The notes under the pieces are model-generated. The model had not been told where the DNA came from. It saw nothing but the letters and a program-made list of their open reading frames with translations, and searched no databases. From the NCBI GenBank assembly GCA_963828125.1, contig CAWHDP010000002.1:992001-1056000 (forward strand): 64,000 bases of DNA, written 5' to 3'. Position numbers and translations under genes: made by a program. The number at the start of each line of letters is the position of its first letter. Positions within the stretch are counted from its first letter, which is position 1. This DNA is from an uncultured Chlamydiae bacterium. GTDB taxonomy: Bacteria; Chlamydiota; Chlamydiia; Chlamydiales; SM23-39. This document shows positions 30,704-48,580 of the stretch, one piece after another.

Positions 30704-31591
30704 TTATAATTGGAGATATGCAGCGCTCCATAATCGGTATAGCTGGGTCTCCTTGGGGTGTTTGCCATAGGCAATCGCCGCTAGGTACCCGTCTTTAATC
30801 TCTAACTCCATTAAATTTAAACGAATGGGTGCATCTTGGGCCACTGAATCAATAACCACCAGCCCCCCTCCTGAGATCGCATCAAAACTCTTTAACGGAT
30901 AACTCAATCCCCTCCCTATCGCCTTCACAATCGCTTCTTTACGAGTCCAAATCTGGTAAAATGTAGCTAATTTATGGACCGGAAGAGCTCTTTTTAAAAT
31001 AGCATATTCATTCGGAGAGAAAAATTCTGCGGCAATCGATTCAAAATTATCTATTTCCAATATTTTTTCTATATCAATCCCCACCTCTCCATCTTTGCAA
31101 ATAACACAAAGTCCGAGATCGCCTGAATGAGAAACGTTAAAGTATAAAGAACCTTGACCTTTTTTAAGCGACGGTTTGCCGTATTCATTGTAGGAAAACT
31201 CAATATCACTAGGATTCCGCACCAAATACATTCCAATAATTTTCCGCAACGCCCCCCTCATCAAAATAAAATTCTCTCGGTGGCATTTTTGGAAAAAACT
31301 ATCGGCCCGCGCCCGTTCATCCTCTGATAGGAATTTGTAGAATTCATCTGTCTGTTGACCGGAATTTACAAAATCAATCCTCCAAATATGAAGTTCTTTT
31401 TCAGAAATAGGCGTTGATATACACAAAGAACCTGAAGAATCAGAATTCTGAGGTAAAGCCGACATCGCCAAAAACCGATTCTTCAGGGTCTTTATGTATA
31501 ATTTAGGTTTTGAAAAAAATATCACAAAAGTGTTAGAGTCTACCGCAGAATTTAGAGTTTGTCGATAGACTCTTATACAGGTTTCTCTCAT
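30704..31591 (-). CDS. Sfp/HetI-type 4'-phosphopantetheinyl transferase (start uncertain; element inserted near the N-terminus)
   Basis: Motifs LSEDERARA, YGKP, FNVSHS, VGIDIE and WTRKEAIVKAIGRGL. Confidence 0.9.
   Translation of the reverse strand: MRETCIRVYRQTLNSAVDSNTFVIFFSKPKLYIKTLKNRFLAMSALPQNSDSSGSLCISTPISEKELHIWRIDFVNSGQQTDEFYKFLSEDERARADSFFQKCHRENFILMRGALRKIIGMYLVRNPSDIEFSYNEYGKPSLKKGQGSLYFNVSHSGDLGLCVICKDGEVGIDIEKILEIDNFESIAAEFFSPNEYAILKRALPVHKLATFYQIWTRKEAIVKAIGRGLSYPLKSFDAISGGGLVVIDSVAQDAPIRLNLMELEIKDGYLAAIAYGKHPKETQLYRLWSAAYLQL
31420..31498. mobile_element. 79-bp MITE-like element with TA flanks, in-frame (81 bp) within the PPTase ORF
   Basis: Ends tacacaaagaacctgaagaatc and gattcttcagggtctttatgta, with TA at 31418-31419 and 31499-31500. 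Its right 43 bp match the inverted left end of the 37770 element. Confidence 0.8.
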
Positions 31592-31606
31592 TTTCCGCCT
31601 GGTTGA

Positions 31607-32959
31607 TTGATGAATGCGTCCAACTTACACTACGATTGTTTAGGTATCGGAATCGGCCCCTCGAATCTAAGCCTCGCTTGCCTGTTAGATCCCATCAAAA
31701 AGCTAAACTACTGCTTTTTAGAGCAAAAGCCCACATTCATCTGGCATGAAGGTCTTCTCCTAGAAGATGCTTCTGTACAAATATCGATTTTGAAAGATCT
31801 TGTCTCACTGGTGAATCCTAGAAGCGAATATTCTTTTCTCTCATTTTTACATGAAAAAAATAGGCTCTACCATTTTATTAACGCCGACTTTACAAGAGCT
31901 AAAAGAACTGAATTCAATCAATACTTTCAGTGGGCCTGCTCCAAACTCAAATATCTCAAATTTTCACACAAAGTCAAGGGCGTAGCATTTAACGGAGATT
32001 TTCAAATAGAGACAGAACAGGGCCTTTTCCAAGCCAAAAATATCGTTATTGGCGTTGGACAGGTTCCTCATATTCCTCCATTCGCAAAAAAGGTCAATCA
32101 TCCTACCGTTTTCCACGCTTCAGAGCTTTTAACCAAGCAATGGGCCCTGAAAGACAAACGCATCGCCGTAATCGGAGGAGGCCAGTCTGGAGCCGAAGTA
32201 TTCTCAACCATCCTCTCTTCGCCAAAAATAGAGGCTCCCTCTAAATGCTTATGGATGTCCAGAAGAAGTAATTTTTTCCCCTTGGATGAATCCCCCTTTT
32301 GCAATGAATTTTTTATGCCTATTTACAGCGAATATTTCAACAAACTTCCAGATCGAATCAAAAAGCATAAGCTAAAAGAACAAAATCTGATAAATAATGG
32401 TATTTCTCTAGATACAATTAGACATATCTACCAGGCAATCTATCAAAATGCTTTTTTAAGCAAAAAACCTATCTCCATCAAGCTTTTGGCTGGGAGAGAG
32501 GCACTCGATATCGATGCAAGAGGAAATTCTTGGAAACTGACTGCAAAACATATGGATACCGGAGAATATGAAGCCTTTGAGGCGGATATCATTGTACTAG
32601 CAACAGGCTATCGATACGAAATCCCTAATTTTTTAAGTCCTATACGGAGCCGTCTGCAAATACAGGACGAGGAGCTAGTCATCCGAGACGATTTTTCAGC
32701 TAGATGGGATGGCCCCGATCATCACCGGATTTATATACAGAATAATGCGATCGGCCAAAAAGGGATTGCCGATCCCAATTTAAGCCTCATCGCCTGGAGG
32801 AGCGCCAAAATTATCAATAGCCTCATGAATCAACAGGTGTATAAAGATCAAAATATCCAGTCTTTCATCAGCTGGGGGGGAGGATCTTCGCAAAAAAATA
32901 GCCCAGTTCCTTTCGATCTGCCCTGCAGTATAACCAGTGGGGATACAGTTGTCCTTTGA
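31607..32959 (+). CDS. Lysine N6-hydroxylase / ornithine N5-oxygenase family flavoprotein (Spb38/Tri26-like)
   Basis: Motifs GIGIGPSNLSLA, WHEGLL, VIGGGQSGAE, LATGY and DPNLSLIAWRS. Confidence 0.9.
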   Translation: MMNASNLHYDCLGIGIGPSNLSLACLLDPIKKLNYCFLEQKPTFIWHEGLLLEDASVQISILKDLVSLVNPRSEYSFLSFLHEKNRLYHFINADFTRAKRTEFNQYFQWACSKLKYLKFSHKVKGVAFNGDFQIETEQGLFQAKNIVIGVGQVPHIPPFAKKVNHPTVFHASELLTKQWALKDKRIAVIGGGQSGAEVFSTILSSPKIEAPSKCLWMSRRSNFFPLDESPFCNEFFMPIYSEYFNKLPDRIKKHKLKEQNLINNGISLDTIRHIYQAIYQNAFLSKKPISIKLLAGREALDIDARGNSWKLTAKHMDTGEYEAFEADIIVLATGYRYEIPNFLSPIRSRLQIQDEELVIRDDFSARWDGPDHHRIYIQNNAIGQKGIADPNLSLIAWRSAKIINSLMNQQVYKDQNIQSFISWGGGSSQKNSPVPFDLPCSITSGDTVVL

Positions 32960-46898: not shown

Positions 46899-47688
46899 CT
46901 ACCCTCATGTTCTTGCCATATAGTATACAGACTGAAGTATCAGATAACGGCGCATAGGTCTGTACATCTAGTGTAAATCCATTTTTTTCTAAAATATCGA
47001 CAAACATTGTGCTGCTCTGTTTATTTTCTATTTCGATCACCACTTGTCTGATTTTTTTCCAGTGACTTGATTCTATACCTTGAATCACATCCCATTCACT
47101 TCGTTCGACATCCACCTTTAATAGATCTATTCTCGGAAGCTGGTACTGATGAATGATCTGGGAGAGGGTCACTGAGGGGCAAAGAAGGGTCGTTTTTCCC
47201 AATTTCGAGTCGATTAATTGATCTAACAGGTGGGAGCTGAAAGAAAGTCCGGTCTCTTGCTGCTGGTAAAGAGCTGTGGCTTTCAAAAACGTTCGATCTT
47301 TAGCAGCATTGGGATAACAACCCGATTGGAGAGAAGACTTTGGGTAATGGGTAAAGCGCCTGGTACCTATTGAGTTAGATACGGCGACATTGAATAACTC
47401 CATATTCCAACCGAAAAAATGGGAATTGATTCTGAGAATTTCGAAAACTTCTGGGATCGGTTCAAAGGCGAAGACTTTGGCTCCCTGGCAATGGAGAAAC
47501 ACGAAAAGGGAGAACATTCCTATATTGGCGCCTACATCGAATACAATTGGATCTTTGTCTAGAATCAAGCCATATCGCAGGTAAAGGCGATCTTCAAATA
47601 TCTCTCTAAAGAGAAAATCTGTCTCATTTTTATTTATATGAGCAAACTCGATCCCATTGGGAAGCAAGCATTTTTCTAAAAGAGACAT
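46873..47688 (-). CDS. FkbM-family methyltransferase
   Basis: Motifs NETDFLFREIF, VFDVGANIGMF, AFEP and IDLLKVDVE. Confidence 0.85.
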   Translation of the reverse strand: MSLLEKCLLPNGIEFAHINKNETDFLFREIFEDRLYLRYGLILDKDPIVFDVGANIGMFSLFVFLHCQGAKVFAFEPIPEVFEILRINSHFFGWNMELFNVAVSNSIGTRRFTHYPKSSLQSGCYPNAAKDRTFLKATALYQQQETGLSFSSHLLDQLIDSKLGKTTLLCPSVTLSQIIHQYQLPRIDLLKVDVERSEWDVIQGIESSHWKKIRQVVIEIENKQSSTMFVDILEKNGFTLDVQTYAPLSDTSVCILYGKNMRVDDGSDFSF

Positions 47689-47695
47689 AGATCAC

Positions 47696-48580
47696 CTAGA
47701 AAGGGGCTCTGATTCCGGCCACAATTATATTTGGCATAAAGCTAATGATTGCGCCTTCATTCTTAGCCTCTTCCTTCAATTTCTGAACCAAAAGATCGAT
47801 TGTTTCTCGGGTCGACAAACCATGCTCTAGGAGGAATTTCTCACACTCCAAAGTGCCTCTAGCCATTTGCAATTTTTCATATTCGGTTTTTAACAACGGA
47901 TGAAAATATTCGTAATCAAGTATACGGAGACCCACATCAAGATAGAAAGGCAGCAATCTCTTTCCGAAGTCAGGATCTTTGCCATAGTGCGCATATATTT
48001 TGAGGGCTAACGCGAGCCATTCATCGACTACTTGGCTTTCTGGATAGCTGAAAATATGGCTGGCAATCAGATCTTGAATGACGACAACCCCAGAACCTGG
48101 TTTTAGTAGGGTTTGAATGGTATTTAAAACCGATCTATGATCGATTAAGTGAATAAATACAAAACGGGAAAAAACAAAATCCAACTGGTTTTCTAAATCG
48201 AGGGAATCGAGATCGTATGCAGAAACAACCTGAAAATCTATATTATCAATTCCCTCTTTAGCGGCCATTGCCTTTGCCAATCGGATCTGTTCTCCGCTAC
48301 TGTCAACTGCGATCACTCGTCCGTTTGGTTGAACCTCTTTGGCAAGCCAAACGCTCATTTGCCCAGCTCCGCAACCGAGTTCCAACACGGTCATTCCAGC
48401 CTTTAGGCCCATTTTTTTTAAAAAAGTTTGGCTGGAATCGTTCGTAAGGCTATTCAGAACATCGAGTCTCTCCTCACCTTTTTCACCGATCTCCAAAAAA
48501 TATCCCTTATCCTGCATAGCCGCTCCTTGATGGTATGAGGTCAATAACAACAAAAAGAATAAAAATTTTCTTAAGCGCAT
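47696..48580 (-). CDS. Class I SAM-dependent methyltransferase with a signal-like N-terminus
   Basis: Motifs VLELGCGAG, AVDSS, DFVFSRFVFIHL and LKPG. Confidence 0.85.
   Translation of the reverse strand: MRLRKFLFFLLLLTSYHQGAAMQDKGYFLEIGEKGEERLDVLNSLTNDSSQTFLKKMGLKAGMTVLELGCGAGQMSVWLAKEVQPNGRVIAVDSSGEQIRLAKAMAAKEGIDNIDFQVVSAYDLDSLDLENQLDFVFSRFVFIHLIDHRSVLNTIQTLLKPGSGVVVIQDLIASHIFSYPESQVVDEWLALALKIYAHYGKDPDFGKRLLPFYLDVGLRILDYEYFHPLLKTEYEKLQMARGTLECEKFLLEHGLSTRETIDLLVQKLKEEAKNEGAIISFMPNIIVAGIRAPF

Follow-up and report, generated by a model that had tools for sequence, protein, structure and literature searches.

A predicted hydrazino-peptide gene cluster on an acquired island in a chlamydial genome

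Introduction

What would a chlamydia make with genes for a nitrogen–nitrogen bond, and from where would it have obtained them? The question is raised by contig CAWHDP010000002.1 of assembly GCA_963828125.1, from an uncultured Chlamydiae bacterium, of which 64,000 nt were analysed (this whole stretch is called the window, and all positions refer to it). Between positions 30704 and 48580, a cluster of eleven genes encodes hydrazine-forming enzymes together with a nonribosomal peptide synthetase (NRPS). By analogy with characterised pathways, the island that carries this cluster most likely makes a short peptide starting with a hydrazino acid, a reading held with fair confidence; its best structural form would be hydrazinoacetyl-Xaa-Gly, in which the hydrazine is kept or methylated.

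The host genome (2.37 Mb, two contigs, 95% complete) reads as chlamydial, as the preliminary description of this DNA had proposed: it encodes an Hc1 histone-like protein (52.4 bits) and four full-length NTT/TLC nucleotide transporters (502–697 bits), and the type III secretion genes SctU, SctV and CopN lie inside the window. Published pathways are cited here from the available parts of their reports. Within that range, literature searches on chlamydiae with hydrazine or biosynthetic clusters returned no such pathway for Chlamydiota, the consulted passages on chlamydial biosynthetic gene clusters are silent on one, and the cupin/methionyl-tRNA synthetase (MetRS) hydrazine pathways in the literature searched come from free-living bacteria, none being reported from obligate intracellular ones.

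Gene content of the cluster

The eleven genes are as follows, with condensation (C), adenylation (A), thiolation (T) and thioesterase (TE) domains abbreviated.

30704–31591, minus strand: Sfp/HetI-type 4'-phosphopantetheinyl transferase (PPTase; Pfam ACPS 7.4e-19, with AASDHPPT_N)
31607–32959, plus strand: lysine N6-hydroxylase of the Spb38/Tri26/AzsL type (PF13434, lysine/ornithine N-hydroxylase, 1.7e-102)
32937–33992, plus strand: DAO-family flavin (FAD) oxidase of the Spb39/Tri27/AzsM type (PF01266 1.6e-24)
33970–41178, minus strand: bimodular NRPS, C-A-T-C-A-T-TE, 2402 aa (Pfam: two Condensation, two AMP-binding, two PP-binding, one Thioesterase)
41175–42641, minus strand: stand-alone AMP ligase of the Tri29/AzsP type (AMP-binding 1e-39, with AMP-binding_C_3)
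42761–43060, plus strand: putative stand-alone carrier protein of the Tri30/AzsQ type, 99 aa (fold and invariant Ser51)
43057–43812, plus strand: GNAT N-acyltransferase of the Tri31/AzsS type (Acetyltransf_3 1.7e-17)
43825–44895, minus strand: C45 autoproteolytic acyltransferase/hydrolase of the AzsT/Tri14 type (PF03417 4e-24)
44883–46898, minus strand: cupin/MetRS-like predicted hydrazine synthetase of the Spb40/Tri28/AzsN/PyrN family, 671 aa (Cupin_2 and tRNA-synt_1g)
46873–47688, minus strand: FkbM-family methyltransferase (PF05050 1.3e-18; TIGR01444 103.7 bits against a cut-off of 37.7)
47696–48580, minus strand: class I S-adenosylmethionine-dependent methyltransferase (Methyltransf_31 6.2e-23)

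The preliminary description had drawn up this gene list from the letters, and Pfam together with the list of open reading frames (ORFs) returned the same families at the same positions, the carrier being recognised by its fold and Ser51. Every gene is open and full length relative to its homologues, and all catalytic motifs that were checked are present. Adjacent same-strand genes share 4 to 26 nt, an arrangement usual for operons. For instance, the start of the oxidase gene overlaps the hydroxylase gene by 23 nt and the stop of the AMP ligase gene overlaps the NRPS start by 4 nt, while the carrier gene diverges from both of the latter; hydroxylase and synthetase stand 12 kb apart in the same island.

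The cupin/MetRS-like protein as a hydrazine synthetase

The central enzyme combines a Cupin_2 domain (residues 39–105) with a tRNA-synt_1g domain (residues 127–504; both Pfam). Its class I signatures are HLGH (141–144) and KFSTS (453–457), those of the hydrazine synthetase PyrN being HLGH and KFSTG (bioRxiv 10.1101/2025.08.22.671884). The cupin residues H49, H51, E55 and H89 are all present; in an alignment of 25 synthetase sequences the last three are invariant and H49 is kept in at least 90%.

Several lines of evidence separate this fusion from the MetRS of translation, which is encoded elsewhere in the genome (C1:258864); on the Pfam model that enzyme reaches 486 bits and the fusion 219. 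The two proteins are 25.8% identical, and on the fusion the NCBIfam equivalog models for MetRS stay under their cut-offs (254 against 587 and 230 against 336 bits). Among PDB entries, the top matches are 9vq4/9vqj/9vr2 (256.8 bits) and 9l8v (254.2 bits), compared with 161.7 bits for the best true MetRS; 9VR2 is PyrN-C, the MetRS-like half of a hydrazine synthetase (bioRxiv 10.1101/2025.08.22.671884). In the sequence database, 1222 proteins match at E ≤1e-10, and cupin and MetRS parts occur together in nearly all of the 120 matches listed.

In a quick maximum-likelihood tree of 39 sequences, with SH-aLRT as its support measure, the chlamydial enzyme pairs with P0004 (64% identical) at support 100, forms a five-member clade with P0005, P0006 and P0007 at support 100, and is joined by P0008 at support 98. 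The chlamydial housekeeping MetRS stands apart from this family on a branch of length 4.6. The fusion thus falls where the preliminary description had placed it, and is best regarded as a hydrazine synthetase paralogue, not as the housekeeping enzyme.

Amino acid substrate of the synthetase

An eight-residue pocket code has been described for this family, with Spb40 positions T128, P129, D169, Q172, W371, M374, N412 and H416 as reference (PMC12376268, crediting Matsuda et al. 2024). The same source gives TPDQWMNH for the glycine-using AzsN and SADQWYGH for the threonine-using ThzN. In our alignment the chlamydial pocket reads TPDQWMNY (T135, P136, D173, Q176, W375, M378, N416, Y420), equal to the glycine type at 7 of 8 positions, and AzsN-like synthetase-carrier fusions of Streptomyces read TPDQWMNH. 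The tyrosine variant is found in 10 of the 25 aligned synthetases, the chlamydial one included; among these ten are all four of its closest relatives and, in addition, enzymes of Bradyrhizobium and Rhizobium.

At the position of R390, one of the two side-chain-binding positions of PyrN, the chlamydial enzyme has A381, where most glycine-type sequences have G; with Y420 at the other, its pocket is without a charged residue. Because of the 7/8 code match, the uncharged pocket and a set of companion enzymes documented only for hydrazinoacetic acid (HAA) pathways, glycine is read as the probable substrate, "with real uncertainty".

Predicted activation of hydrazinoacetic acid

The companion enzymes were compared with an alignment-based scan of metagenomes, which yielded 80 synthetase loci, none above 42% identity and many on short contigs. 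Hydroxylase and synthetase occur together in 54 of the 80, and the trio of hydroxylase, oxidase and synthetase, which had been proposed as a functional unit, recurs in 31; ligase, GNAT and C45 are added in 12 of these, an NRPS match accompanies 10 of the 12, and all seven genes are found in 8 of the 80 loci. The chlamydial hydroxylase is 38–47% identical to hydroxylases adjoining synthetases in loci with the full trio, and oxidase homologues, mostly at 33–42% identity, adjoin hydroxylase and synthetase in the same 31 loci. By analogy, the oxidase would cleave the lysine-glycine hydrazine adduct and release HAA.

The island encodes, along with the trio, a full set for HAA activation, namely AMP ligase, carrier, GNAT and C45 hydrolase; membership was judged by family and gene context, the Tri and Azs proteins being compared by family name. 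A ligase is present in 29 of the 80 loci, and with most of these ligases the chlamydial one shares 35–44% identity; its best NCBIfam matches are o-succinylbenzoate-CoA ligases under cut-off, and it would load HAA or acyl-HAA onto the carrier. The GNAT (33–47% identical to homologues in 15 of the 80 loci, which also have a ligase) would acylate the distal hydrazine nitrogen. The C45 protein matches NCBIfam NF040521 (C45_proenzyme) at 218.9 bits against a cut-off of 85, its Cys111 within G-E/D-C is invariant, and it presumably removes the acyl protecting group. The PPTase scores 168 bits on the HetI-like NCBIfam model, under the equivalog cut-off.

The 99-aa ORF has no Pfam or NCBIfam match, even at E 10, and its assignment relies on context, conservation and a structural model. 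Homologues adjoin an AMP ligase or a GNAT in six other hydrazine loci (tblastn), and Ser51, within (T/S)S(L/M), is invariant across seven aligned homologues. An AlphaFold2 model built on the homologue alignment reached a pLDDT of 85, and the PDB matches that Foldseek listed for it are essentially all acyl carrier proteins, alone or as the acyl carrier subunit of larger complexes (E from 4e-3 upward, none at 0.001; probability 0.99–1.00). By predicted fold and invariant serine, the ORF thus appears to be a carrier protein. In one metagenomic locus (L051, 6464–7336), a carrier homologue is fused to the N-terminus of a GNAT, a fusion that hints at an acyltransferase able to work on the carrier-bound unit or close beside it.

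Published work supports these families but not every step first proposed for them. In triacsin biosynthesis, free HAA is first succinylated by Tri31, succinyl-HAA is the only form that Tri29 loads onto Tri30, and the Tri22 dehydrogenase acts next (bioRxiv 10.1101/2021.05.12.443849). In azaserine biosynthesis, the C45 peptidase AzsT strips the succinyl group from succinyl-HAA-AzsQ, AzsF oxidises HAA to the hydrazone, and the KSIII enzyme AzsD transfers it (PMC10445470). The activating families of the preliminary description therefore stand for both pathways, while its order, in which the GNAT followed loading, is at odds with the succinylation of free HAA by Tri31; deprotection by a C45 enzyme, in turn, is documented for azaserine, while the triacsin homologue Tri14 is described in the available text as assayed only as a thioesterase (bioRxiv 10.1101/2021.05.12.443849). 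In the literature searched, as far as the available texts extend, the ligase/carrier/GNAT/C45 set is documented only for HAA pathways (bioRxiv 10.1101/2021.05.12.443849; PMC10445470).

The peptide synthetase, the methyltransferases and the absent oxidation enzymes

The first domain of the NRPS is a C domain that begins at residue 14; as no loading module precedes it, the donor must come in trans. The first C domain (C1) carries the motif HHLIMDAWS, with alanine at the usual glycine position, and the second HHIAFDG; the T-domain serines lie in GGNSI and GGNSL, and the TE motif is GWSFG. C1 matches elongation-type domains in the PDB (5u89, 181 bits; Txo1/2, 175 and 173; fuscachelin PCP-C, 146; TycC, 141) and scores 72 and 68 bits against the "Surfactin synthetase" entries 8f7h and 8f7f, which we take to be the lipo-initiation starter domain. 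An elongation-type C1 fits a donor that would in effect be a carrier-bound N-amino glycine, and by analogy this domain would take the carrier-bound hydrazino acid, as had been suggested before. A homologue search with residues 1–1100 returned long multimodular synthetases at 30–35% identity and no close full-length relative.

The pocket residues of the A domains, located by hand from the FDxS, TPS, GGE and NxYGPTE anchors, are DAFLFGATIK for A1 and DILQIGAIWK for A2. The latter is identical at 8 of 10 positions to DILQLGLIWK, which we take to be the common glycine code, and the former presumably belongs to the Val/Ile-like group DAFxxGxTxK. Overall PDB similarity was also considered as a guide to specificity and was set aside as undiscriminating, A1 matching many A domains at about 310–325 bits. 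Release by the TE domain would then yield the predicted chain, hydrazinoacetyl-Xaa(aliphatic)-Gly.

The absence of an acyl-CoA dehydrogenase, noticed earlier for the cluster, extends to the whole 95%-complete genome, in which PF00441 has 0 matches; a control search with the same family matched 9 of 14 reference genomes. Furthermore, no Pfam domain of a KSIII-type transferase (Tri13/AzsD) or of a heme-oxygenase-like diiron oxidase (AzsE) was found in the island or in the other window ORFs scanned. Since neither a dehydrogenase nor a diiron oxidase is present, the hydrazine is probably kept or methylated, and its oxidation to a hydrazone or diazo group is not expected. Methylation of the hydrazine would fall to one of the two methyltransferases, for both of which a hydrazine nitrogen and the carboxylate are candidate sites. 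Neither methyltransferase occurs in any of the 80 metagenomic synthetase loci, and the FkbM enzyme also has no homologue in the related Rickettsiales cluster described below.

Proposed route and the points that weigh against it

In the proposed route, every step of which rests on homology with characterised pathways, the N-hydroxylase would first form N6-hydroxylysine. The MetRS-like domain of the synthetase would then adenylate glycine and esterify it to the N-hydroxyl group of hydroxylysine, and the cupin domain would rearrange the ester to create the N-N bond, after which the DAO oxidase would cut off the lysine part and leave HAA. The GNAT would acylate the distal nitrogen of HAA, the AMP ligase would load acyl-HAA onto the 99-aa carrier primed by the PPTase, and the C45 hydrolase would remove the acyl group, on the carrier or later. 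Finally, C1, with no loading module before it, would join the carrier-bound hydrazino acid to an aliphatic amino acid, and module 2 would add glycine before the TE domain releases the product.

A number of observations weigh against this route. C1 carries HHxxxDA, not HHxxxDG. The A-domain assignments depend on motif-anchored residues and on likeness to general specificity codes, and the overall similarity of A2 is equal for the valine and glycine domains of LgrA (181 and 176 bits). Sequence gives neither the sites of methylation nor the order in which GNAT, ligase and C45 hydrolase would act. The cluster has no transporter or resistance gene, and no RNA run was among the public runs found to carry it. 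In addition, the last pocket residue of the synthetase is Y420, not H, and aligns with R425 of PyrN, which is critical for side-chain recognition (bioRxiv 10.1101/2025.08.22.671884). The literature searched, which did not cover the original pocket-code paper, contains no characterised tyrosine-variant synthetase. A didomain aspartate-specific synthetase is reported from a Bradyrhizobium (bioRxiv 10.1101/2025.08.22.671884), and one tyrosine-variant relative of the chlamydial enzyme comes from a Bradyrhizobium metagenome-assembled genome (MAG).

These last points bear on a variant in which the same machinery operates and the synthetase takes another amino acid, for instance alanine or serine, so that the starter would be a substituted hydrazino acid. 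Synthetases with mixed Ser/Gly and Ala/Gly use do exist (bioRxiv 10.1101/2025.08.22.671884), and the tyrosine stands precisely at the critical position. Nevertheless, this variant is rather unlikely: 7 of 8 code positions are of the glycine type, the threonine-type SADQWYGH differs at 4 of 8, the tyrosine variant falls in the same 27-row group (SH-aLRT 99) as the AzsN-like enzymes, and the ligase, carrier, GNAT and C45 companions are known, in the available sources, only with HAA. A glycine-derived hydrazinoacetyl starter is therefore retained as the preferred form of the route.

Acquisition of the island and the remaining alternatives

Comparison with same-genus genomes places the cluster within a larger insertion, whose extent and internal repeats are as follows.

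28018–50691, no strand: whole insertion relative to same-genus genomes, about 22.7 kb, comprising a FAD_binding_4 oxidase, a cyclopropane-fatty-acid synthase, the cluster and an ankyrin-repeat protein (48919–50691)
30627–30706, no strand: dispersed repeat (80 bp, hairpin core) at the left edge of the cluster, with three further copies at 90–99% identity
48694–48801, no strand: dispersed short repeats at the right cluster border, with a 62-bp unit that has four further near-full-length copies in the genome

In three of the four same-genus neighbourhoods (G159, G254, G371), MalQ precedes the transglutaminase/TPR gene that lies to the right of the island (50715–52295), and no island genes stand between; in the fourth, G275, nothing upstream of the transglutaminase/TPR gene was matched. 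That gene itself was found in 13 of 13 other genomes of the genus. The synthetase, on the other hand, occurs in 1 of 103 family genomes and in none of the 13 of the genus (E up to 1e-80), 3 of the 400 phylum genomes that were scored have a strong hydroxylase match over the full length, and the ankyrin protein has no orthologue in the 13 same-genus genomes, one of which holds a 25–27% match. Composition differs as well, the GC content of the cluster being 0.418 against 0.471 and 0.491 for the host contigs, and third-position GC (GC3) 0.37–0.49 in cluster genes against 0.54–0.66 in flanking genes. On distribution and composition, the cluster is best regarded as a horizontally acquired island.

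The window holds no tRNA gene and the island no integrase or transposase. Elsewhere in the genome, the 31-bp hairpin core of the left repeat is matched about 16 more times. A 53-bp stretch of the right repeats (48694–48746) recurs at 50430–50482 within the 3' end of the ankyrin gene, and the border repeats may have mediated the insertion. Island DNA occurs in soil metagenome runs of one study, and a marine run of a second study has difference-free pieces.

The FAD_binding_4 oxidase and the methyltransferase at 28018–30622 were considered as pathway members and rejected, since the latter scores as a cyclopropane-fatty-acid synthase (540 bits, cut-off 400), both are also paired in the synthetase-free genomes G300 and G319, and their GC3 is native. 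This pair occupies differing genomic sites across species of the genus (L035, L036), the synthase being present in 4 of 13 genomes. The adjoining MalQ (4-alpha-glucanotransferase, 26564–28038) is split over two frames, with the switch near 27215–27270, and is one 498-aa ORF in G159; the split may be genuine, a frameshift next to the insertion, or may stem from an error in sequencing.

An acquisition of this kind could also have left a silent or decaying passenger with no product in this organism. The restriction of the island to a single family genome, its unameliorated GC, the lack of a transporter or regulator in the island and the want of an RNA run carrying the cluster would all suit such a passenger. 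It is nonetheless quite improbable, given eleven genes that are open and full length, intact catalytic motifs and operon-type overlaps that have been kept.

A hydroxylase, an acyltransferase and an NRPS together form the classic hydroxamate layout, and the island matches it, so that a siderophore cluster, in which hydroxylase and GNAT supply N-acyl-N-hydroxylysine to the NRPS, might be envisaged. This is very unlikely indeed: it leaves the intact synthetase, oxidase, C45 hydrolase, ligase and carrier unexplained, although these co-occur in 8–12 of the 80 loci, the Pfam scans of island and window contain no receptor, reductase or export genes, and the A-domain pockets as read are presumably unlike Lys/Orn codes. 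Finally, an assembly or binning artefact that joined the cluster of another soil organism at repeats is hardly credible, for while De Bruijn contigs of the public short-read runs break exactly at both cluster borders, at dispersed repeats, the cluster lies inside a 1.92-Mb contig between chlamydial type III secretion genes and ClpB, the border repeats belong to families of the same genome, and contig depth is equal for cluster and flank in run X1 (12.7–13.3) and similar in X2, which speaks against a chimeric join.

Relatives of the cluster

The closest whole cluster found, and the sole locus that the species-representative genomes yielded, lies on a 23.6-kb contig of 30% GC, CANDYO010000006.1, "MAG: Rickettsiales bacterium isolate NGIII-112018-120" (L030, L119). 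Its genes run in the order ankyrin protein, three LuxR regulators, methyltransferase, synthetase, C45, GNAT, carrier, ligase, class IV aminotransferase, 2-hydroxyacid dehydrogenase, glyoxalase-fold protein, PPTase, NRPS, hydroxylase and DAO oxidase. Identities to the chlamydial proteins are as follows.

Synthetase: 51%
C45: 61%
GNAT: 58%
AMP ligase: 52%
Hydroxylase: 56%
PPTase: 46%
Methyltransferase upstream of the synthetase, against the chlamydial class I methyltransferase: 33%
NRPS, one module C-A-T-TE of 1328 aa, against chlamydial module 1: 41% over 1110 aa

The two clusters thus share the core gene set, the carrier protein, the DAO oxidase and an ankyrin protein at the edge, the two ankyrin proteins having repeat-level similarity only. 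The class IV aminotransferase, 2-hydroxyacid dehydrogenase, glyoxalase-fold protein and three LuxR regulators are present in the Rickettsiales cluster and not in the chlamydial one. Moreover, the Rickettsiales NRPS has a single module and the cluster no FkbM methyltransferase, whereas the chlamydial cluster has two modules and the FkbM enzyme. The first C domains are 41% identical, and the chlamydial NRPS looks like the Rickettsiales one with a glycine module inserted before the TE domain. Of 301 genomes sampled from the order of the MAG, the MAG itself was the one in which the synthetase was found, a distribution that is sporadic as well.

The six-member synthetase clade has GARP/FYMINK ratios of 0.54–0.98, compared with 1.4–2.9 in 17 of the 19 other aligned sequences; outside the clade, two sequences depart from that range, the enzymes of Niallia taxi (0.47) and G379 (0.79). 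Such AT-rich encoding is compatible with a low-GC, possibly host-associated donor pool and is not proof of one.

Relatives of the synthetase are also found in Rhizobiales, Erwinia, Bacillales, Acidobacteriota and others. Together with the Rickettsiales MAG and a second chlamydial family, this spread does not agree with the preliminary description, in which pathways of this family were mostly actinomycete. The 80-locus metagenome scan did not recover the closest proteins P0004, P0006 and P0008, and a pattern scan with the single synthetase protein gave 34 pattern matches, none of them a relative. Of two annotated loci, L038 is azaserine-like, with a dehydrogenase and a C-A-T enzyme, and L037 is without a dehydrogenase and with an A-T-C enzyme.

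The second chlamydial family carries a different N-N cassette without an NRPS (L028, G379:C4:1076000-1095999, genes at 5764–14359). It comprises a methyltransferase, a PGM1-like ATP-grasp protein, a lysine-2,3-aminomutase-like radical SAM protein, a Cupin_8 protein, a beta-lactamase-fold protein and a trio of N-hydroxylase (41%), DAO oxidase (31%) and cupin-MetRS (33%), the last with the pocket TPDQWMNN. This synthetase falls outside the clade of the chlamydial window enzyme, which points to a separate gain.

Other features of the window

A malate-synthase-like gene and a D-2-hydroxyacid dehydrogenase gene (18952–21725) stand between alanine racemase and sctU, at a site without both in G159, G254 and G371. 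This dehydrogenase and its counterpart within the Rickettsiales hydrazine cluster share 33% identity, and a link of the two genes to the pathway through glyoxylate or glycine supply is possible. At 6832–15401, glycosyltransferases of the families GT2, GT4, GT6 and GT11 form a glycan gene block together with an initiating sugar transferase and two NAD-dependent epimerase/dehydratase genes. GT6 and GT11, known chiefly for glycans of the blood-group type, are unusual for a chlamydia. Downstream of ClpB (55292–63893) lie two giant ORFs, one of 1807 aa, in which DUF3638 is the sole Pfam match, and one of 1041 aa that matches no Pfam family.

Implications

Altogether, a full HAA set, an amide-forming NRPS and the lack of oxidation enzymes lead us to expect a new hydrazino-peptide scaffold, not a diazo or hydrazone product. 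The cluster also appears as a clean gene gain in a genome-reducing lineage, the sister sites being empty and the nearest whole cluster lying in a Rickettsiales MAG, so that it offers a testable example of secondary-metabolite exchange among host-associated bacteria. More tentatively, and as a possibility of rather low probability, obligate intracellular bacteria of unrelated phyla, here a chlamydia and a Rickettsiales MAG, may share an AT-rich gene pool and make, within a eukaryotic host cell, a free or N-methylated hydrazino-peptide as a reactive, antimetabolite-like warhead aimed at the host or at competing microbes. If true, no earlier N-N natural product pathway would be known from an endosymbiont, and the output would be new too, an amide-linked hydrazinoacetyl di- or tripeptide formed by an elongation-type C domain that reads a stand-alone carrier. 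With its 18 kb, the cluster suits direct synthesis and heterologous expression.

Comparison with known pathways

As judged by gene families, the cluster belongs to a known kind, in which an HAA cassette supplies an NRPS; the pathways to azaserine, thrazarine and s56-p1 are of this kind. The triacsin genes tri26-31 correspond to spb38-43 of s56-p1 and encode hydroxylase, oxidase, synthetase, AMP-dependent synthetase, acyl carrier protein and N-acyltransferase (bioRxiv 10.1101/2021.05.12.443849). All six have counterparts by family in the island, whereas the Tri22 dehydrogenase, the transfer by the Tri13 ketosynthase to a type II polyketide synthase and the addition of a third nitrogen belong, in the available description, to triacsin and not to the island.

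The likeness to the azaserine pathway of Streptomyces fragilis (AzsL/M/N, P, Q, S, T, U, O and B; PMC10445470) is more extensive, as far as the available text describes it. Both systems have the hydroxylase, DAO oxidase, cupin-MetRS and AMP ligase, and in addition a stand-alone carrier, GNAT, C45 enzyme, PPTase, an NRPS that takes (in the island, would take) the carrier-bound unit, and release by a thioesterase. Features of azaserine that are missing from the island are the AzsF dehydrogenase, the KSIII enzyme AzsD, the diiron oxidase AzsE, a P450 and the carrier domain on the synthetase. The azaserine NRPS is an ester-forming enzyme with cyclization, adenylation and carrier protein domains (Cy-A-CP), in contrast to the C-A-T-C-A-T-TE enzyme of the island, predicted to form amides, and the island adds two methyltransferases and a chlamydial host.

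Thrazarine stands closest in logic. According to the available part of its report, its pathway is without AzsF, and its NRPS is proposed to use the unoxidised hydrazino acid (PMC12376268). Both thrazarine and the island would thus combine a hydrazino acid with an NRPS in the absence of the AzsF dehydrogenase. Thrazarine differs in its threonine-using synthetase (SADQWYGH), in forming an ester and in keeping the diiron oxidase for the diazo group. By this analogy, the NRPS of thrazarine provides the closest precedent for the route proposed here, to which the island would add, as judged from its genes, an elongation-type C1 in a bimodular amide-forming NRPS, a pathway without oxidation enzymes, two methyltransferases and obligate intracellular hosts.

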